Assembly: GCA_965202785.1 (NCBI GenBank)
Contig: OZ241855.1
Location: forward strand, 1,056,001-1,120,000
From: Thermodesulfobacteriota bacterium
GTDB lineage: Bacteria > Desulfobacterota_D > UBA1144 > Nemesobacterales > Nemesobacteraceae
Direction of reading: 5' to 3'
Length of the DNA stretch: 64,000 nucleotides
Shown: positions 33,739-56,773 of the stretch, piece after piece
How positions within the stretch are numbered: position 1 is the stretch's first letter
Layout of the letters: every line of letters starts with the position of its first letter
The notes under the pieces: generated by a model
What the model was told of the DNA's origin: nothing
The model's input: the letters and a program-made list of their open reading frames with translations, nothing else
The model's database searches: none
Translations under genes and position numbers: made by a program

Positions 33739-34023
33739 CCGGCAATCTCCTTTTCCCTAACGCGTAAAAATAATGCGTAAAAATAAGATTATACATAATT
33801 CGCTCTACTAATGGCAGAAGGGCCGCTTTCATATAACGCACTCTCCGCGGACCGGAAACTCTTCGGATTGATTTTCTCTCATAATAAATTATAGTACAGA
33901 CTGGTTCTTTTTAACCGACTGGTCGTATCTTTATCGGCGTCACCGCGAAGGAGGAAGGTGGGTGAAGTCCTTAAGCGAAGTTAACGGAATTTGCGGGCGT
34001 TGTGCCCCGTGCCCCGAAAAATC

Positions 34024-34034
34024 GGGGGGGGGGG
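34024..34034 (+). repeat. Poly-G11 tract immediately before the ATG of the giant surface protein
   Basis: c-G11-t-ATG(34036). Confidence 0.9.
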
Positions 34035-34035
34035 T

Positions 34036-37000
34036 ATGAGAACCCGCGGACCGTTTCCGCCGTTTTCTTCCCCGGCCGCATCCTTCGGGGACCGCGGGCG
34101 GCCTGACTCTTCCTACCGGCCCGGGCGGCCGGGTCTTTCGAAATTCTTATCTTTCCCCCCACAGCATTTCGCGGCGGCGCTTCTCGTTCTGCTCGCCCTT
34201 TTTGTGGGCGCGCAGCCTGAAACTGCGCGCGCCCAGTCAAGCGTGCTGGTGAGCAACATCGCTCAGACGGGAGAAGTCGGTATACGTAACGTGGGGAGCG
34301 GCGGAGGCCTTGCCCAGGCTTTCACGACCGGCGACAACGCCGCGGGATACGCCCTGGAAAGCATCCAGGCTGGGGTAATGGCGGCAGAGCACGTAGCCCA
34401 GCTTACAGTAAGCCTCTACTCCGAGAGCTCGGACGTGCCGGGGTCCTCCCTCCAGACCCTGACGAATCCGACCCCGTCTTCGACCGGGGAGCAGACGCTT
34501 GAATTCACGTCGCCCGGGGGAAGGATGCTTGCGGCCAACACGACATATTTCGTGGTCTTCGAATGCGGACACCAAACCTCCTTCTGCGCCAAGATGCGGC
34601 GAACCAGCTCTGACGCGGAAGACGCGGGCGCGGCGTCGGGATGGAGCATAGGCGACGGAGGTCATTCATACAGCGGCACTCGATGGAACTTGTTTACCCA
34701 CGCGATCAGGATCGGGGTGAAGGGCAGCGCTAAGACTGCGGCGGCCAACACCGCGGCCATGGGAACGCCGACGATTTCGGGGACGACGCAGGTGGGAAAA
34801 ACGCTTACGGCGGTTACAACCGGGATTTCAGACACCGACGGGCTGGACACTGTCGCCTGGATGTACCAGTGGATGCGCGTGGACTCGGACGGCACGTCGA
34901 ACCCCGTGAACGTCGGGACTGACTCCGAGACCTATGAGATCCAGTCTGCCGACCTGGGCAAGAGGCTCAAGGTGCGGGTGAGTTTCAGCGACGATGTCGG
35001 CAACCAGGAGACGCTGACCAGCGCCGCGACCGGCACGGTGACGGCACCCGTCCCTGAAATCACCATCGCGCGGCAGGCGGCGTCGGTGACCGAGGGAACC
35101 GCGGCGCGATTCACGGTGAGCGCGTCTCCGGCGCCCGTGGTCAACCTGGACGTGAGCCTTGGCGTCGCCGACGCGGCCGGCCTCGGGGACTTCGTCGCGT
35201 CGGGAGACGAGGGCTCGAAGATGGTTACGATCAGCGCCGGAGCCGCGAGCGCGACCTACAGCGTCCCCACGGTCGGCGACGCCGTGGACGAACCCAACGG
35301 CAGCGTGACGGTCTCTTTAGGTACGGGTACGGGGTACACGCTGGGTACGGCCGCCAGCGCTTCGGTGACTGTGAACGACAACGACGCGGAACCGTCCGTG
35401 AGCGTAACGCGGCCGTCGGTGACTGAGGGGAACATGGGCACGGTGACGCTTGACTTCGTGGTGAGTCTGAGCGGGCTGAGCGCCTATCCCTACCGCTGCA
35501 ACACTCTGGATGAGGACAGCCGGACCACGGCGACGCCCAGCACGGACACCGTGACCGGGGACTACGAGCCGAAGGATGACAATACCCTGTCCTTTCTTAC
35601 ATCCCAGACGCTTACCTTTTCGGTGACGGTGAACGGAGACACCGTGAGCGAGAGGAACGAGAAGGTACTGGTTCGGTGCCGGCGGGGCACCCTGGCCGGC
35701 GTCACGATCTCGGGCACGATCACGGACGACGAACCGATAACGGCGAGCATAACGGCGGGCACTTCCCCGGTAACCGAGGGGACGGCGGCGGAGTTCACGA
35801 TAAAGCTTTCGAAGGGACCGCCTGGCGCGGTCATGGTGAAGTACACGGTAGCGGAGGCTTCAGGCAGCGATTTCGTGGCGACGGTGAATGAAGGGGAAAA
35901 GATGGTTAGCTTCACCGCCGCACCGGGGGACACCAGTCCCCAGAAGACGGTCAACGTCCCCACGGTGAACGACAGGCAGGTAGAGGATCCCGCCGCGGTA
36001 ACGGCGACTCTGGCCGCGGGCACGGGCTACACAGTCGCTTCGGCTCCGAACAACGCCGCTTCCGTAACTGTAAACAGCGAAGACACCAACGCCTCGCCCG
36101 TGATCGGCGGTTCGAGTGCGTTTAGCGTGGATGAGAACGATACCTCCGTGACTAGGATCACCGCCACGGACGCGGATTCGGACGACACGGCAAGGGCGTA
36201 CTCCGTCAGCGGCGGGGCGGACGCGTCGAAGTTCGAGATTTCAAGCTCCGGGGCGCTCGCGTTCAAAACGGCGCCCGACTGGGAGAATCCGACCGACGTT
36301 GCGAGTATGAGTCCCCAGGACGGCGCGGGCAACAACGTGTACGTGGTGACGGTAAGGGTGACGAGCGGGACGGGAGGGCGCTCTCTCTCGACCGACAAGA
36401 CGCTCAAGGTAACGGTGGATGACGTGGATGAGCCGCCGGGGGCGCCGTCGCCGATGATCACGACTTCGACACCGAGAACTCTCGCCGTGGAGTGGACGGC
36501 GCCGACTAACACGGGGCCGGCGATAACGGATTACGGCGTGCGGTACAGGAAAGGGTCAAGCGGCAGTTTCACCGACCATTCCCACAGCGGGACGGGCCTT
36601 ACAACGACTATCACGGGTCTTGATCCGAACTCGAGCTACCAGGTGCAGGTGCGGGCGACCAACGCGGAGGGCAGCAGCGCTTGGGCCTCTGGCCAGGTAA
36701 CGGGCATGACGGCCATGGACCGCCCTCCTGTCCTGACGGTGACGGATACGACACCCTCGGTGGCGGAAAACGAGACTGCCGTGCCGACTACGCTTTCCGC
36801 GGCCGACCCGGACATGGGGGACGGGATAACGGGCTGGAGCCTCGGCGGGGCGGACGCGTCGAAGTTCAGTATCTCAGACTCCGGGGCTCTCACGTTCAGC
36901 CCGGCGCCCGACTACGACAGGCCCGCGGACGTTTCGAGCACGAACCCGCAAAACAATGCGGCCAACAACGAGTACATAGTCACTGTTATCGTGAAAAGCG

Positions 37001-40000
37001 GCGTTACGGGGCGGGAACTCTCCGACAGCGAGACTCTCACGGTGACGGTGACGAACGTGCCCGAGGCGCCGGGAACGCCTTCGCCGACGGTCACGGCCTC
37101 CACCCCCACCACCCTTGATATTGCGTGGGCCAAACCCGCCAACAATGGACCGGAGATCGATGATTACGACGTGAGGTACAAGCTCGCCTCGGCCGACGAC
37201 AGCGCCTTCGTGAACCTTGCGAGCCACGCGGGGACGACCAAGGTGACCACGAGGACGGCGACGATTACGGGTCTTACCCCGAGCATGGAGTACGTGGTGG
37301 AAGTGCGGGCGAGGAACCCGGAGGGGGACGGCGCGTGGGGCTCCGTTACGCGCGCGACGCTTGAGGACAACGCTCCGACCTTCGCCGCCGGAACCCCCAC
37401 GGCATTTACCGTGAATGAGAACGATACCGAGGTGCATGAGTTTGAGGCAAGCGACGGCGACCCCGGGGACATGGTGCTCAGCTACGGGGTCAGCGGGCCT
37501 GACGGGGAGAAGTTCGATATCACTGACCAGGGGGCGCTTACGTTCAAAACGGCGCCCGACTACGAAAATCCGACTGACGATGGGAGGAACAGGGTGTACA
37601 ACGTCACGGTTACGGTGAACAGCGGCGTTACGGGCCGGACGCTCGCCGCGAACCGGCCGATCACCGTCAGGGTGAGGGACGTGGCCGAGGCGCCGGGCGT
37701 TCCGTCGCCGACGGTCACGCAGCGCAGACCCAAGACTCTCACGGTTGCGTGGGATGAGCCCGCGAACACGGGTCCCCCGATAAATGATTACGACGTGCGG
37801 TACAGGAAAGGGAGCGGCGGCGGCTACACCACCCTGACCCACAACGGGACGGCGAGGGAGGCTCTGATCACGGGGCTTGAGAAGGGGACGAGCTACGAGG
37901 TGGAGGTGCGGGCCAGGAGCCTCGAGGGCAGCAGCGACTGGGGTTCCGTGACAGTCGACACGGATGGCTTTGAGATAACGGTGACGGCCGGAGTGGAATC
38001 CCTGGAAGTAAGCTGGCCCGGGGTTACGGGCGGCAATTTCCAGAGGGTAAGGTGGAAGGTGCAAGGCGCGTCAGACCAGACAAGGACTACTGAGATTTTT
38101 TATGACACCACCACCCGTTCCTACACAATCCCCTCCCTGAGTCCTGGCACTGCGTACGAAGTGGAAGTGTCGATCCGCAGAACACCGCCCCTTGTCGTTC
38201 TCGGCGAGGATGTGGCGACGGGGACGCCTCTCTCGCCCCCCGTAGCGGAAAACAACCTGGCCATGGGAACGCCGACGATCACGGGGACCGCGCGGGCCGG
38301 GGAGACGCTTACGGCGGATACCTCAGGGATCATGGACACAGACGGACTTACGCTCGTAAGCTACACGTACCAGTGGCTTCGCGGGGATCCCGGGACATCG
38401 AATCATGCGAACATCTCGGGCGCCTCGGGCTTTCAATACCTGGTAGGGGCCAACGACGTGGGCAAGACGCTCCGTGTTCGCGTAAACTTCACGGACGATC
38501 TCGGAAATCCCGAGACGCTTACAAGCGGTCCGACCGCGACTGTGACTCTCGCGCCCGGGGTGACGGTAGACCCGCCCTCCCTGAACGTGGATGAGGACGG
38601 CGGCATGGGGACTTTCACCGTGGTTCTCAACACGAACCCCGGCGCAAGCGTAACGGTATCCCTCTCTTCCTCCGCCCCGGCGGCGGCACGGGTATCTCAC
38701 TCCCAGCTTATCTTCACCTCCTCTAACTGGAGCAGTCCTCGGACGGTTACCGTGACCGGCGTTGACGACAGCGTCGACAATCCCGGCAACCGGCGCGTAG
38801 CGAAGATTCGGATGACTTACAGCTCGTCAAGCAGTGATTATAGCCAGTCCGCGGTGCAGGACAGGGTGACGGTGAACGTGATTGACGACGAAACCGGCGG
38901 TGGGGGCGGCGGCTCGTCTCCCAACCGCCCGCCGGTCTTCCCGTCAGGTGCCACGGCGCAGACGGCGTATGTGGATCAGGAGTTCATCTACACCGCCCCG
39001 GAGGCGACCGACCCCGATGAGGACCCGATAGACTATGCGGCGGCGCTTCGGGACGGGAGCGCTCTGCCCGGGTGGCTTTCCTTCGACGAAGCGACGCGGA
39101 CATTCTCCGGCACGCCGGAGGCGGGAGACGCTCCCGCCCTTTTTGACATCGAGGTGACGGCCTCTGACGACGGTAGTCCCGCGCTCAGCGCGGCCACCGC
39201 CTTCACCCTTACGGTGGAAGAGTGCAGGGTTTCCGACGTGAGCGGAGAAGACGAGAGCAGCTTGGTGGAATTTGTGGAATGCGCCGCGCGGAGAATCGCG
39301 GCCTCTGACGCTCTGGGGGGGACCCTTGCCCTGCTTGAGCGGTTTCGGGACCCGGAAGGAAACTGGAATGACGGAAGAACCTATCTCGTGTTGCTCACCG
39401 AAGAAGGCGGGGTGTACTTCCACGCGGCCCGGAGGGAGTCTGAAGACCGGGACTGGTCTGCTCTTCCGTGTGCGGAGGGAGGGGGCGTGACTGATATTGA
39501 GGTCGGGGAGGGATGCCCGGTCGGCGGCGGAGGCTACGCTCACCGGTTTTCGGCTTCCCATGTTCCGCTGGCCAACGGAGAGAAGGAGTTTCTGCTGCTG
39601 GGCGGCTTCGGCGGATCTTCTGGAAGGGAAACTCTCTCGGGAGACATAGCAGACCCGTCAACGGAAGCCGGGGATGTGGCGAGCGACGGAGAACTGATGG
39701 AGTTTGTCGAGGACGCTAAAGAGTCTTTAGAGATGGCGATTGGAGATGATGCGGACCCCTCAGGGATTCGGGCGACGCTTCGGGACGGGGAAGGACCGTG
39801 GAAGGCCGGGGAGGTCTACGTCTACATCATGGATGAGGAGACTGGGAGAGTGATATTCGACGGAGGAGACAGGGAGAAGGAACAGACGGAGGCCCTCTAC
39901 AGGCTTGCCGCGCTCGGCAGGGTCGCTCAGTACAGAGAGGGTTCTTCGCTCCTTAGGGGTTACGCCGTCAGGGTGAACGCGGGCGAGGATGAAGCAAGCC

Positions 40001-40236
40001 GCGAGTACGTGGTGGGTTCGGGCTACCTGGGTCCGGGCGGAGGGGGAGAGATGCCGCCGGAAGAAAGACCGCCGGGAGAAGTCGAGGGAGAAGTCGGGGG
40101 AGATGAAAGCGCCGGAGGCGGCTGCGCCGTTGGAGCAGACTCTGGCGGAAGGGTTTTCCCGCTGCTGCTCCTTGGACTCGCGCTTTTTTTCTTGCTGCCC
40201 CTTGGAAGATTCCCGGCGGAAGACGGGGCAGGCTGA
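34036..40236 (+). CDS. Giant surface protein/adhesin (Calx-beta-like, cadherin, FN3, Ig-like repeats; C-terminal GGGC-TM anchor)
   Basis: Extended signal peptide; three cadherin (PDYENP-like)+FN3 (W..P.N.GP.I.DY.VRY) units; LPGWLSFD..TRTFSGTP; GGGCAV + TM tail. ORF track start 33991. Confidence 0.88.
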   Translation: MRTRGPFPPFSSPAASFGDRGRPDSSYRPGRPGLSKFLSFPPQHFAAALLVLLALFVGAQPETARAQSSVLVSNIAQTGEVGIRNVGSGGGLAQAFTTGDNAAGYALESIQAGVMAAEHVAQLTVSLYSESSDVPGSSLQTLTNPTPSSTGEQTLEFTSPGGRMLAANTTYFVVFECGHQTSFCAKMRRTSSDAEDAGAASGWSIGDGGHSYSGTRWNLFTHAIRIGVKGSAKTAAANTAAMGTPTISGTTQVGKTLTAVTTGISDTDGLDTVAWMYQWMRVDSDGTSNPVNVGTDSETYEIQSADLGKRLKVRVSFSDDVGNQETLTSAATGTVTAPVPEITIARQAASVTEGTAARFTVSASPAPVVNLDVSLGVADAAGLGDFVASGDEGSKMVTISAGAASATYSVPTVGDAVDEPNGSVTVSLGTGTGYTLGTAASASVTVNDNDAEPSVSVTRPSVTEGNMGTVTLDFVVSLSGLSAYPYRCNTLDEDSRTTATPSTDTVTGDYEPKDDNTLSFLTSQTLTFSVTVNGDTVSERNEKVLVRCRRGTLAGVTISGTITDDEPITASITAGTSPVTEGTAAEFTIKLSKGPPGAVMVKYTVAEASGSDFVATVNEGEKMVSFTAAPGDTSPQKTVNVPTVNDRQVEDPAAVTATLAAGTGYTVASAPNNAASVTVNSEDTNASPVIGGSSAFSVDENDTSVTRITATDADSDDTARAYSVSGGADASKFEISSSGALAFKTAPDWENPTDVASMSPQDGAGNNVYVVTVRVTSGTGGRSLSTDKTLKVTVDDVDEPPGAPSPMITTSTPRTLAVEWTAPTNTGPAITDYGVRYRKGSSGSFTDHSHSGTGLTTTITGLDPNSSYQVQVRATNAEGSSAWASGQVTGMTAMDRPPVLTVTDTTPSVAENETAVPTTLSAADPDMGDGITGWSLGGADASKFSISDSGALTFSPAPDYDRPADVSSTNPQNNAANNEYIVTVIVKSGVTGRELSDSETLTVTVTNVPEAPGTPSPTVTASTPTTLDIAWAKPANNGPEIDDYDVRYKLASADDSAFVNLASHAGTTKVTTRTATITGLTPSMEYVVEVRARNPEGDGAWGSVTRATLEDNAPTFAAGTPTAFTVNENDTEVHEFEASDGDPGDMVLSYGVSGPDGEKFDITDQGALTFKTAPDYENPTDDGRNRVYNVTVTVNSGVTGRTLAANRPITVRVRDVAEAPGVPSPTVTQRRPKTLTVAWDEPANTGPPINDYDVRYRKGSGGGYTTLTHNGTAREALITGLEKGTSYEVEVRARSLEGSSDWGSVTVDTDGFEITVTAGVESLEVSWPGVTGGNFQRVRWKVQGASDQTRTTEIFYDTTTRSYTIPSLSPGTAYEVEVSIRRTPPLVVLGEDVATGTPLSPPVAENNLAMGTPTITGTARAGETLTADTSGIMDTDGLTLVSYTYQWLRGDPGTSNHANISGASGFQYLVGANDVGKTLRVRVNFTDDLGNPETLTSGPTATVTLAPGVTVDPPSLNVDEDGGMGTFTVVLNTNPGASVTVSLSSSAPAAARVSHSQLIFTSSNWSSPRTVTVTGVDDSVDNPGNRRVAKIRMTYSSSSSDYSQSAVQDRVTVNVIDDETGGGGGGSSPNRPPVFPSGATAQTAYVDQEFIYTAPEATDPDEDPIDYAAALRDGSALPGWLSFDEATRTFSGTPEAGDAPALFDIEVTASDDGSPALSAATAFTLTVEECRVSDVSGEDESSLVEFVECAARRIAASDALGGTLALLERFRDPEGNWNDGRTYLVLLTEEGGVYFHAARRESEDRDWSALPCAEGGGVTDIEVGEGCPVGGGGYAHRFSASHVPLANGEKEFLLLGGFGGSSGRETLSGDIADPSTEAGDVASDGELMEFVEDAKESLEMAIGDDADPSGIRATLRDGEGPWKAGEVYVYIMDEETGRVIFDGGDREKEQTEALYRLAALGRVAQYREGSSLLRGYAVRVNAGEDEASREYVVGSGYLGPGGGGEMPPEERPPGEVEGEVGGDESAGGGCAVGADSGGRVFPLLLLGLALFFLLPLGRFPAEDGAG

Positions 40237-54402: not shown

Positions 54403-55554
54403 CTAGAACTCTCCCCTGAACGCCTTTGCGAAGCCGTCATGCTGCGACCTGGCAATCTTTTCCTGCTCGGCCTGCAGGTAAGCCCGGTCCTTTCTCTCTA
54501 TACGTATTATGTCGTCCCGGCCCTTGGATGCCATGAACTGTGTTCCGACCGTTTCCTTTGAGATTATTTCAAGTATTGGCGGGTAGTTTTTCGATCCGAT
54601 GAATATGGAGTGTATGCAGACGCCTATGCTCTTTGCGCGCACTCTCTGCGCTTCGACATTGGGATCGCCGGAAGTTGGAATCCCATCGGTTATAAAGAGT
54701 ATGTGCTTGTTCCTGAGCCCTCTGCCCCGGAACTCCTTAAGGGCTGCTCCCAGCGCTTCTTCGTAGTTGGTATTGCCGGAGCAGTCTGTGCTCTCCGCCA
54801 GCTTTTCTATCCACCTGTAGTCCCTGGTGAAAAAACGGGAGTTCTTCGTGTGTTTTCTTGAACGGTGGTTAAATTCCAGATAGCCGATTCTCATTCTCTT
54901 TTTTCTCGCGAGCTCTATTACTCCCTTTACTACGGATGAAGACCACTCGCTGTAAACTCCCATCATCGAAGTGCTTACATCCCTCAGGATGGCTATTTCT
55001 CCTCCGAGCGTCTCTTTTTCGCGAAGGTGAACCCGTGGCAGCTTGGGAGAGGTGTGCTGTGACCATATAAACGCCTCTACGGGGTCTATATCCTCGACCT
55101 CATCAAAGGTGGACATACGTTTCCATTTCCTGGGGGAACCTCCTGGGTGGGAGGTTTTCTTGGCCATGCTTTTCTGGAAATTGCCCTCAAGGACTCTCAT
55201 GATGCGTTTTATGTTCTCGGCAGTTTCCGTATTTCCCCTTCCAGGGATGACAGTATCGTCGTCTTCTCCGGCCTTGGTGGATTTGCTGCTCATGTATGCG
55301 CGCGCGGATTTGTCCTCTCTTTCCGTGTTTCCGCTGTCCTGGGGATTTCCGGTGGGGTCGCTCGGCACGTCCTGGCCTTCCGGAGGAGCCATTTCGTTCT
55401 GGTTGTCAAGGTTCTGCTTTAGATCCTTGAGCGCGTCGAAGAAGGTTTTCTGGGCCTCGGCAAGCGGATTCTCGGTTTCCTTGTCCGCTTCCTCGTCGGG
55501 GATTTCCCCCTTGGGTTCCTGAGAGAAATCCTGGTCGAATTCCGAATCAGGCAT
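54403..55554 (-). CDS. VWA domain protein; probably the C-terminal part of a frameshift fusion with the upstream AAA+ ATPase
   Basis: MIDAS DVSTSM, GNTN, ITDG; N-terminal acidic/Pro-rich linker. Confidence 0.88.
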   Translation of the reverse strand: MPDSEFDQDFSQEPKGEIPDEEADKETENPLAEAQKTFFDALKDLKQNLDNQNEMAPPEGQDVPSDPTGNPQDSGNTEREDKSARAYMSSKSTKAGEDDDTVIPGRGNTETAENIKRIMRVLEGNFQKSMAKKTSHPGGSPRKWKRMSTFDEVEDIDPVEAFIWSQHTSPKLPRVHLREKETLGGEIAILRDVSTSMMGVYSEWSSSVVKGVIELARKKRMRIGYLEFNHRSRKHTKNSRFFTRDYRWIEKLAESTDCSGNTNYEEALGAALKEFRGRGLRNKHILFITDGIPTSGDPNVEAQRVRAKSIGVCIHSIFIGSKNYPPILEIISKETVGTQFMASKGRDDIIRIERKDRAYLQAEQEKIARSQHDGFAKAFRGEF

Positions 55555-55571
55555 CTGATCCGGGTCCGGGG

Positions 55572-56528
55572 TCAGCTTGTCATCTGGCTTTTTTTTTTAT
55601 CCTGAACTATATTCCGAAGAATATTGTCCATCTGTTCGTAGACGTCGGGGGGAACTCTGAAAGCAGTCATGTATCTTAAGACGTCAAGGTCTTCTTTCGA
55701 GCATACATCCCTTTCGTTAAGAAGAGCGTGGGAGCGGATAAGCTTGAGCGCTTTTACAAAAAACGTCCTGTCTGTAATAAGCGAGTTGGTCTCGTTAAGC
55801 CCGAAGTCCTCGATCATTATGGTTGCGAAATTCGCAAGACCTTCCTGCACATCGGGTGGAATCAGGATTTTTTCAAGGGTTTTGTAGCTTTTGTCGAAAA
55901 GCTTTTTGCTTACCCTTTTCGGTATTTTTTCTTCAAACGGCTTCTCGGCGTAAAGCTCGATGACTTTCTTGGCTTCATCCCATTTTCTACCGTAGGAAAT
56001 TCCAAGGGCTTTCACCTGAAGAATGAACCGATCGAGGTTTGCCGGATCAAGGGGTTCGTTATAGTACTCATCCGCGGTGGGATTGCTTGTCGCTATGGCT
56101 GTCAGAAGGGGAATGGGCTCGCTGAAGAATTTTCTTTCGTTAAGTATTCGAAGAAGTATGTTGAGCGATTCCCCGGGCGCGCGCGATATGTCGTCTAAAA
56201 GGCAGATCTCAGACGTCAGTATGCCGCCCTTTATAATATCCTGCTTTATCCTTTCTCCGAGTTCGGTGTCTTCCTTGATTATGGTCAGGTCCCCGACAAG
56301 TTCCGAGAGCCTGGTGTCTCTGTGAAGCTGGTAGAAAAAGAAGTTAAGCTGGGCTGCCTTGGAAACGATTTCCGAAAGCATAGTCTTCGCCGTACCCGGA
56401 GGACCTTCAATGTAGATGTGTTCTCTTGAGATTATTCCGAGAAGAAGGGCGGTTTTTACCTCGTCGTGTCCGACGACATGCTTATCCATTTCTTCCCGAA
56501 GGGACGCAAAAGGGTTAGCGGGGTTCAT
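55572..56528 (-). CDS. MoxR-family AAA+ ATPase (RavA-like)
   Basis: GPPGTAKT, CLLDDISRA, LNILLRILNER, ATSNP, ANLDRF. Confidence 0.9.
   Translation of the reverse strand: MNPANPFASLREEMDKHVVGHDEVKTALLLGIISREHIYIEGPPGTAKTMLSEIVSKAAQLNFFFYQLHRDTRLSELVGDLTIIKEDTELGERIKQDIIKGGILTSEICLLDDISRAPGESLNILLRILNERKFFSEPIPLLTAIATSNPTADEYYNEPLDPANLDRFILQVKALGISYGRKWDEAKKVIELYAEKPFEEKIPKRVSKKLFDKSYKTLEKILIPPDVQEGLANFATIMIEDFGLNETNSLITDRTFFVKALKLIRSHALLNERDVCSKEDLDVLRYMTAFRVPPDVYEQMDNILRNIVQDKKKSQMTS
55589..55598 (-). other. A10 slippery run linking the AAA+ ORF to the VWA ORF in the -1 frame
   Basis: Minus strand GAT AAA AAA AAA AGC; -1 frame open into the VWA ORF. Confidence 0.7.
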
Positions 56529-56773
56529 TCATCCACTCCTGAAAAAGGCAATGAGCGTTATTATTACATAAAGGGATATTTTTTTCAATCTGTTTCGGTG
56601 TGCACGGGTACTGGAGGTTTTGACGGGCTTGGCGCGAGAAAAGCCACGGGAACGTTTTCACATGGGGCCTCGAGCTGGCGGTTCTTTCCTGAATGCCGCA
56701 CAAGTCGTTAAAAAAGCAAGCACTTTCTAGTGCAAAGCCGAGAGGCTTTCCAGGACAGATGGACGGGAGCCGA

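Follow-up and report, generated by a model that had tools for sequence, protein, structure and literature searches.

RavA–ViaA, CbbQ–CbbO, NorQ–NorD and CoxD–CoxE each pair a MoxR ATPase with an adaptor that carries a VWA domain and its metal-ion-dependent adhesion site (MIDAS), the two partners being encoded by separate genes. MoxR ATPases and VWA partners are widespread, and their assembly and ratio are poorly understood. Runs of nine or more A's belong to the length class at which RNA polymerase slips. In published descriptions of frameshifted chlD genes (fs-chlD), a poly-A run closes the AAA+ module, mostly in the −1 configuration, and the gene yields a short AAA+ product and a long AAA+–acidic linker–VWA product (PMC3711429, PMC9227772); some fs-chlD genes are described from genomes without chlH/cobN (PMC9227772). 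For Mg-chelatase poly-A stretches of 7, 9 and 11, frameshifting of 10, 40 and 63%, respectively, is given for E. coli reporters (PMC3711429). The same source describes transcriptional slippage on A9 for tau and gamma of Thermus thermophilus dnaX, two-ORF dnaX genes (ORF, open reading frame) with A10, and assembly of the long and short dnaX products into one complex (PMC3711429). Here we describe a locus of related design on the minus strand of a 64,000-nucleotide window (the whole stretch of DNA that was analysed; contig OZ241855.1, positions 1,056,001–1,120,000) from the phylum Candidatus Dadabacteria. A MoxR-type AAA+ ORF ends here just past a run of ten A's (A10), from which a VWA-encoding frame opens in the −1 phase. 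Most probably this is one gene with two nested products, slippage on A10 giving a short ATPase and an ATPase–VWA fusion. The comparative support consists of the anatomy of the junction, the preservation of the run at the nucleotide level, the absence of a VWA start in most lineages and the existence of run-less relatives with two genes; slippage itself, its transcriptional nature and the co-assembly of the products we infer.

Junction between the ATPase and the VWA frame

The ATPase ORF (55572–56528; 318 amino acids, from the ORF listing and profiles) would specify the short product. Its 3′ end on the minus strand reads CAG GAT AAA AAA AAA AGC CAG ATG ACA AGC TGA, in which the A10 run (55589–55598; codons AAA AAA AAA A-, identified from the sequence and comparative data) is followed by the tail SQMTS and, five codons past the Lys run, by the 0-frame stop TGA (55572–55574). 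In the −1 frame a TAA (55597–55599) overlaps the first A's of the run, and the VWA frame therefore opens exactly at A10. The first codons after this TAA encode KKKPDDKLTPDPDQ and then MPDSEF; past the run the frame reads KKKPDDKLTPDPDQMPDSEF and is free of stops down to 54403, where a TAG (54403–54405) ends it. This open frame (54403–55596) encodes an acidic, Pro-rich linker (D 19, E 16 and P 13 among 142 residues) and then the VWA domain, the last 395 residues of a predicted fusion. The ATPase and the VWA domain would thus be joined in a product of 708 amino acids (313 + 1 + 11 + 383) if the mRNA gained one A or the ribosome shifted by −1. The annotated VWA ORF (54403–55554; 383 amino acids in the ORF listing) starts at an ATG (55552–55554) that is not conserved and has no good Shine–Dalgarno (SD) sequence: the sequence upstream of it is CCGGATCAG, in which no ribosome-binding site comparable to that of the ATPase is present. 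The latter has an SD-like AGGAG (56536–56540) 7 nt ahead of its ATG at 56528. A conserved motif, SEFDQDF (55525–55545), lies just past the junction and is found in most Dadabacteria clades. Direct reading and frame translation thus uphold the preliminary description of this locus in its anatomy: the A10 five codons before the ATPase stop, the stop-free −1 frame leading into the VWA ORF, the lengths of 708 and 318 amino acids, and a VWA ORF that lacks a good SD and begins with an acidic, Pro-rich linker. The genome (1,643,464 bases in one contig, 96% complete) contains one A/T run of 10, eleven of 9 and none longer. Because the junction A10 is the longest A/T homopolymer of the genome and a run stands at this place in 115 of 115 loci of the phylum, its position reflects more than chance.

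The length of the run was compared with public sequencing runs, examined as assembled contigs, which drop minor variants and show presence and consensus length. DNA contigs X10 and X5, from two public runs, and RNA contig X15 cross the run without an insertion or deletion, in agreement with the claim that its length is A10 rather than A11, and both the A10 and its −1 phase are seen again in assemblies from short reads (NODE_ and k141_ contigs) and in Logan contigs built from independent runs. One metatranscriptome contig, X16, from a relative of approximately 91% identity, carries A12 (two extra bases, at 55588) and a 3-base insertion at 55401; no genome of the genus, among 36, has A12, and this RNA-only A12 is not separable from strain variation. 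These data bear on the notion that the split is a homopolymer assembly error, or the locus a decaying pseudogene, the true gene being a single in-frame ORF. Many of the records are long-read assemblies and in-frame versions exist in related families, as such an error would have it, but the A10 and its −1 phase recur in short-read assemblies and Logan contigs alike. A pseudogene, for its part, is hard to reconcile with an ATPase of 65–100% identity, with invariant catalytic and MIDAS residues and with a gene present in 118 of 120 genomes, and we give this explanation next to no chance.

Profile searches identified both halves. The ATPase matched the Pfam families bpMoxR (1.7e-20, 73.5 bits; cut-off 27), AAA_5 (2.1e-18, 67.1 bits; cut-off 22), AAA_3 (5.7e-11, 42.9 bits; cut-off 27) and AAA_lid_8 (24.2 bits; cut-off 22.8), and a profile of 16 orthologs searched against solved structures retrieved 2R44 (MoxR; 6.8e-24) and RavA (2.9e-13), with chelatase chains absent at E ≤ 0.001. 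The ATPase half is a MoxR-class AAA+ protein, not a ChlI/ChlD. A ChlI/ChlD-type AAA module was considered and rejected, given that PF01078 scored 20.2 bits (cut-off 20.3) and aligned over profile positions 4–42 of 207 only (the Walker A region); NCBIfam chelatase models had no match to the ATPase at E ≤ 0.01. The CobN/ChlH large subunit (PF02514) had 0 matches in the 96%-complete single-contig genome, and a control search found this family in 5 of 14 genomes. A chelatase role is rejected on the ATPase profiles together with a genome devoid of CobN/ChlH, and the earlier remark that no chelatase large subunit lies nearby extends to the whole genome. The description of the protein as a RavA-like MoxR was right as to class (profiles, 2R44, and RavA second among structures); membership of the RavA equivalog itself fails (NCBIfam NF010054, 46.2 bits; cut-off 681), the protein having 318 amino acids against approximately 498.

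By motif reading, the ATPase contains Walker A (GPPGTAKT, 56382–56405), Walker B (LLDDIS, 56184–56201) and an LDRF motif (56025–56036), and K48, T49, D112, D113, N149 and R167, which cover Walker A, Walker B, the sensor-1 Asn and the Arg finger, are the same throughout the alignments. Walker B usually takes the form DE, with the catalytic Glu in second place. Here the second acidic residue is Asp (DD), invariant across all three alignments, the stand-alone ATPases of two-gene relatives included. The VWA domain (54532–54996; VWA profile match, 8.3e-9) has a complete MIDAS, consisting of DxSxS (DVSTS, 54967–54981), the Thr in GNTNY (54763–54777) and TDG (54682–54693), all with residues that are invariant in alignments spanning several phyla; VWA_CoxE scored 26.2 bits, under its cut-off of 26.4. 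The locus is the only VWA match in the genome and the only MoxR match to this query.

The AlphaFold model of an ortholog with a naturally in-frame junction (709 amino acids; 64-row alignment; mean predicted local distance difference test score, 74) shows a confident AAA+ module whose last helix (300–318) bears the three lysines (KKK), low-confidence stretches at 317–353 and 378–438 with a helix between them, and a VWA fold at approximately 470–685. The top Foldseek match was 2R44 (E 3.1e-19; TM-score normalised to target length, 0.73), followed by RavA. Since the last AAA+ helix closes with KKK and a low-confidence linker comes next, the model would place the slip site exactly at the domain boundary. 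Upstream of the ATPase, a promoter-like TTGAAA and AATAAT separated by 17 nt, with a TG (56560–56588; some 30 nt ahead of the ATPase start), is no more than a match to the consensus, two such sites being found against 1.7 expected.

The A-run across Candidatus Dadabacteria

An ortholog was found at E ≤ 1e-25 in 118 of 120 species-representative Dadabacteria genomes, among them a family with genomes of approximately 1 Mb, and the locus behaves as a core gene of the phylum. Of 116 loci fetched (two contig-end fragments were left out), one, L195, is cut before the junction, leaving 115 for counting. All 115 have a run of A9–A12 at the junction, as do 80 of 80 loci in an overlapping collection. 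The VWA frame lies in the −1 phase in 94 of them (A10 in 62, A11 in 28 and A9 in 4), in frame in 18 (A9 in 9, A10 in 5, A11 in 3 and A12 in 1) and in the +1 phase in three (L037 and L193 with A9, L145 with A10), each of which is one A under the norm of its own clade. An expectation that homologues would share a poly-A run in a fixed phase was therefore borne out in part: the run is present in 115 of 115 and the −1 phase in 94, but 18 are in frame and three are +1. Within the window's genus the junction is exactly A10, in −1 phase, in 35 of 36 genomes that span 87–100% protein identity. The 36th (L040; G023:C6:1–3500, which is L092) has an in-frame A9, an ATPase interrupted by three in-frame TGA codons and a linker in which the frame breaks once more, and looks rich in homopolymer errors rather than biologically different. 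L097/L159 carry an in-frame A12 within an A11 clade; single-locus changes of run length do occur.

The consequences of such changes were simulated. The long frame is opened by one added A, or by two lost, in 94 of the 94 −1-phase loci, in which the unshifted 0-frame tails are just 6–12 residues long. In 17 clean in-frame loci, both the addition and the removal of one A lead to termination after 4–28 residues.

The run is kept while its surroundings change. In the window's genus the flanking codons vary, also synonymously, with GAT, GAC or AAT before the run and AGC, ACC, ACT or AGT after it. Elsewhere in the two ORFs, Lys is encoded by 3,174 AAA and 2,638 AAG codons (55% AAA), and AAG is never used for the KKK of the junction but accounts for 45% of Lys codons in the rest of these ORFs; AAG-preferring genomes such as L034 (6 AAA versus 45 AAG) still keep A10. 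The run starts in all three codon phases, depending on the clade, and other A-runs within these ORFs have a length of at most 8. On this comparative sequence evidence, the run is selected as nucleotides rather than as residues, because AAG is used elsewhere, all three codon phases occur, no other run exceeds 8 and the A10 is unique in the genome.

Constancy among close relatives also speaks to a switch at the DNA level, in which replication would change the run length and turn the fusion on or off in subpopulations. Lineages do differ (A9–A12), L083/L145, L097/L159, L193 and L037 are one A off their clades, and the RNA contig of the 91%-identical relative has A12. Contingency loci, however, vary between close strains, and the junction run does not: it is A10 in 35 of 36 same-genus genomes, the 36th being the assembly with three in-frame TGA codons, and three independent public runs agree on A10. 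Phase variation is thus very improbable.

Conservation of the VWA-frame peptide begins at the first codon past the run, clade by clade. In the window, and for most of its genus, the upstream stop of this frame overlaps the run. The 25 codons that follow the run contain no ATG, GTG or TTG in 64 of the 97 split loci; the 64 comprise 8 of 35 in the same genus, the other 27 having an ATG, and 56 of 62 in other genera, where 6 have an ATG. Two ordinary genes, with the VWA protein started at its own ATG (55554) and the run merely encoding a conserved C-terminal KKK of the ATPase, would suit the ATG found in 27 of 35 same-genus loci and the near-invariance of KKK as protein in 64 fused homologs. This arrangement nevertheless has very little likelihood, as it leaves 56 of 62 split loci of other genera with no start codon in the stretch, and accounts neither for a run-to-ATG peptide conserved in the VWA frame nor for a KKK that is always written without AAG; moreover, the upstream stop of the VWA frame overlaps the run, and in-frame fusions of the family exist. 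The data support the view that the VWA protein is not made solely from its own ATG, which is not conserved.

Relatives beyond the phylum and the route to two products

The gene is found in nearly all Dadabacteria and also turns up in other phyla. Fused homologs of 53–60% identity occur in records named Tectomicrobia, Entotheonellaceae and Abyssobacteria, most with KKK at the junction; all 64 fused proteins of one alignment have K310, and the two lysines after it are at least 90% conserved. One fused homolog, P0097 (751 amino acids), loses VWA similarity near its end and continues into an unrelated coiled-coil-like tail, probably a frameshift or gene-call fusion in the record. Among 80 metagenome loci, 57 have a junction run of at least nine A's and 23 have none. 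A second clade with the run (15 metagenome loci; GC content, 0.52–0.59) has it in frame as A10, or A11 in one; an Arg codon ending in A precedes the run, stops follow in both other frames 0–6 codons on, and 48% of the Lys codons elsewhere are AAA. L219, a member of this in-frame A10 clade, has A12 and is out of frame (compared with L197–L211).

The 23 run-less loci differ in gene content. Thirteen have a fusion gene followed by a stand-alone ATPase gene, four are arranged likewise on contigs that begin inside the VWA domain, two show the fused gene without a second one, on short contigs, and four are uninformative. In ten two-gene loci examined, each with a complete stand-alone ATPase, the end of this gene coincides with the junction, a place at which the fusion genes lack KKK. 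A maximum-likelihood tree of 51 AAA modules (sampling 17 of 115 Dadabacteria, 6 of 15 from the second clade and 4 of 5 outgroup paralogs, the match of the fifth being too short) groups the stand-alone ATPases with the slippery genes on short branches and places the AAA modules of the fusions on long ones (0.93 and 3.62); its deep forks are unresolved, compatible with one or two origins of the two-gene state. That some lineages carry a slippery run where others have a duplicated gene favours a need for both products, and these two-gene relatives are the strongest indirect evidence that the short ATPase and the ATPase–VWA fusion would both be required. Directly downstream of the stand-alone ATPase, two of the run-less two-gene metagenome relatives encode a Mo-hydroxylase large subunit (L235:4384–5739 and L258:4535–5878; PF01315 and PF02738, aldehyde-oxidase/xanthine-dehydrogenase type), a context that recalls CoxD/CoxE.

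We propose the following route to two products. Standard decoding of the A10 template would yield the 318-amino-acid ATPase, ending right after the last helix of the lid domain, and a fraction of expression events would change frame on the homopolymer. The likeliest cause would be RNA polymerase adding one A or dropping two, with a smaller share possibly arising from a −1 ribosomal shift on A_AAA_AAA. Shifted events would continue through the acidic flexible linker of approximately 150 residues into the MIDAS-bearing VWA domain to give the 708-amino-acid fusion. Sharing one AAA+ module, the short and long products may co-assemble into mixed rings, in which fusion subunits would tether the VWA adaptor and the rate of slippage would set the ratio of ATPase to adaptor; the analogy here is with MoxR–VWA pairs and ChlI/ChlD. 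The reporter yields described for chelatase poly-A runs (PMC3711429) make substantial slippage plausible at this locus.

Slippage is probably transcriptional rather than a classic −1 ribosomal shift, because the run has 9–12 A's, −1, 0 and +1 configurations coexist and no downstream fold is conserved. A purely translational −1 programmed frameshift on A_AAA_AAA with a uniform mRNA, as in E. coli dnaX, has some points in its favour: the heptamer stands in the 0 frame of the window, as it does in any run of at least nine A's, exactly −1 is needed in 94 of 115 loci, and a hairpin of −16.9 kcal/mol lies downstream of the run in the window. That hairpin, however, begins approximately 24 nt past the run, and no downstream hairpin is conserved in 24 representatives, in which z-scores over the 60 nt past the run ranged from −2.45 to +1.51 against mononucleotide shuffles. 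The 18 in-frame loci, the three +1 loci and the A12 RNA contig are all compatible with two-way slippage by the polymerase, and a −1 ribosomal shift cannot give the fusion from the +1 phase. A purely ribosomal mechanism is accordingly unlikely. The preliminary description had kept both kinds of slippage in play; of these the transcriptional kind is favoured, and the −1 ribosomal shift fits less well with mixed frames and no conserved hairpin.

Several observations weigh against slippage as the source of the fusion, or against its transcriptional form. The only well-matching RNA contig (X15) shows a plain A10, as contigs that drop minor variants may. All genomes are metagenome-assembled, several from long reads, and the three +1-phase loci may be assembly errors. 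In 18 of 115 loci the VWA domain is in frame, and the fusion does not need a shift everywhere. An ATG stands 14 codons past the run in 27 of 35 same-genus loci, which makes an independent VWA start possible in the window's organism. The choice between transcriptional and ribosomal slippage, finally, is drawn from indirect arguments, namely run length, phases and the lack of a conserved hairpin. Weighing these points, we retain one gene with two slippage-derived products as the best account of the locus. A further proposal is more doubtful, although possible: the A-run may act as a rheostat by which the composition of a mixed AAA+ ring is tuned, run length and frame setting the ratio in each lineage; the working form of a housekeeping MoxR chaperone would then be a hetero-hexamer with one or a few MIDAS adaptors tethered to it, and lineages losing the run would have had to duplicate the gene.

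Genomic context and comparison with known systems

The neighbours of the window locus are an outer-membrane protein β-barrel, an unnamed ORF, MltG/YceG and ProB. On the other strand, a convergent proB–mltG pair is syntenic (mltG in 66 and proB in 65 of 80 loci), and upstream genes vary, so that the gene stands as a unit of its own. No common partner gene was found in the flanks of 11 metagenome loci, a Mo-hydroxylase being present in L235 and L258 only, and PF02738 had 0 matches in the window's genome. Three roles suggested by such contexts were rejected. Maturation of a Mo-hydroxylase of the CoxD/CoxE type would have no client in this genome, the client being confined to two distant metagenome loci; a MoxR–VWA–β-propeller ternary conflict system (PF20030 context) is contradicted by the lack of a β-propeller neighbour and by a gene present in 118 of 120 genomes; and a defence-system role fits neither the core distribution nor a PADLOC search that gave no match for the window's two proteins.

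A different homopolymer also recurs in the genome, which has seven G11/C11 runs, all exactly 11 long (window 34024–34034, plus strand; G000:C1 13453, 358685, 503938, 1151346, 1338588 and 1579713). Most of the G11 sites share AAAAT(C)-G11-T-ATG-AG, with the run ending one base ahead of the ATG of a large ORF; the one in the window precedes the ATG of a 2,081-amino-acid ORF (33991–40236). Such a run may serve a gene family as a poly-G leader, or as an element that is phase-variable or SD-like.

Among the matches listed by a full-text literature search, with fs-chlD member tables outside its scope, there was no description of slippage or frameshifting for a MoxR/VWA pair. The novelty claimed for this locus therefore stands for the MoxR/VWA pairing and not for the design, which has been published as fs-chlD; because fs-chlD in genomes without the large subunit is also described in print (PMC9227772), the design is less unprecedented than it had seemed. 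What the locus would add is an extension of the chlD-type strategy of nested AAA and AAA–VWA products past chelatases. The adaptor is apparently made as a recoded extension of its ATPase throughout a phylum, streamlined 1-Mb genomes included, and in at least one further clade, which offers a clean system for asking how MoxR–VWA machines are built. It also flags a systematic annotation error, two genes being called in most records.

Compared with the systems outlined at the start, the locus shares the module pairing of RavA–ViaA, CbbQ–CbbO, NorQ–NorD and CoxD–CoxE, but here the adaptor would be covalently nested on a copy of the ATPase. Its acidic, Pro-rich linker and the VWA domain with MIDAS at its C-terminal end repeat the layout of the ChlD/BchD/CobT medium subunit. 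The run-less relatives, with a fusion gene and a stand-alone ATPase, resemble ChlI plus ChlD, the AAA module of the fusion again being the more diverged copy; they differ in gene order and family and in having no large subunit. With dnaX, as far as its published description goes, the locus has in common 9–10 A's in an AAA+ gene, nested products, and in-frame as well as two-ORF configurations across taxa; it belongs to another AAA+ clade with another function, and the long form, standard for Thermus dnaX, would in most lineages here need a slip. The closest likeness is to fs-chlD as described, in the site of the run, the mostly −1 phase, the predicted nested products, the in-frame fused relatives and the separate-subunit relatives, whereas the present ATPase is MoxR-class, the genome encodes no CobN/ChlH and the gene is near-universal in one phylum.

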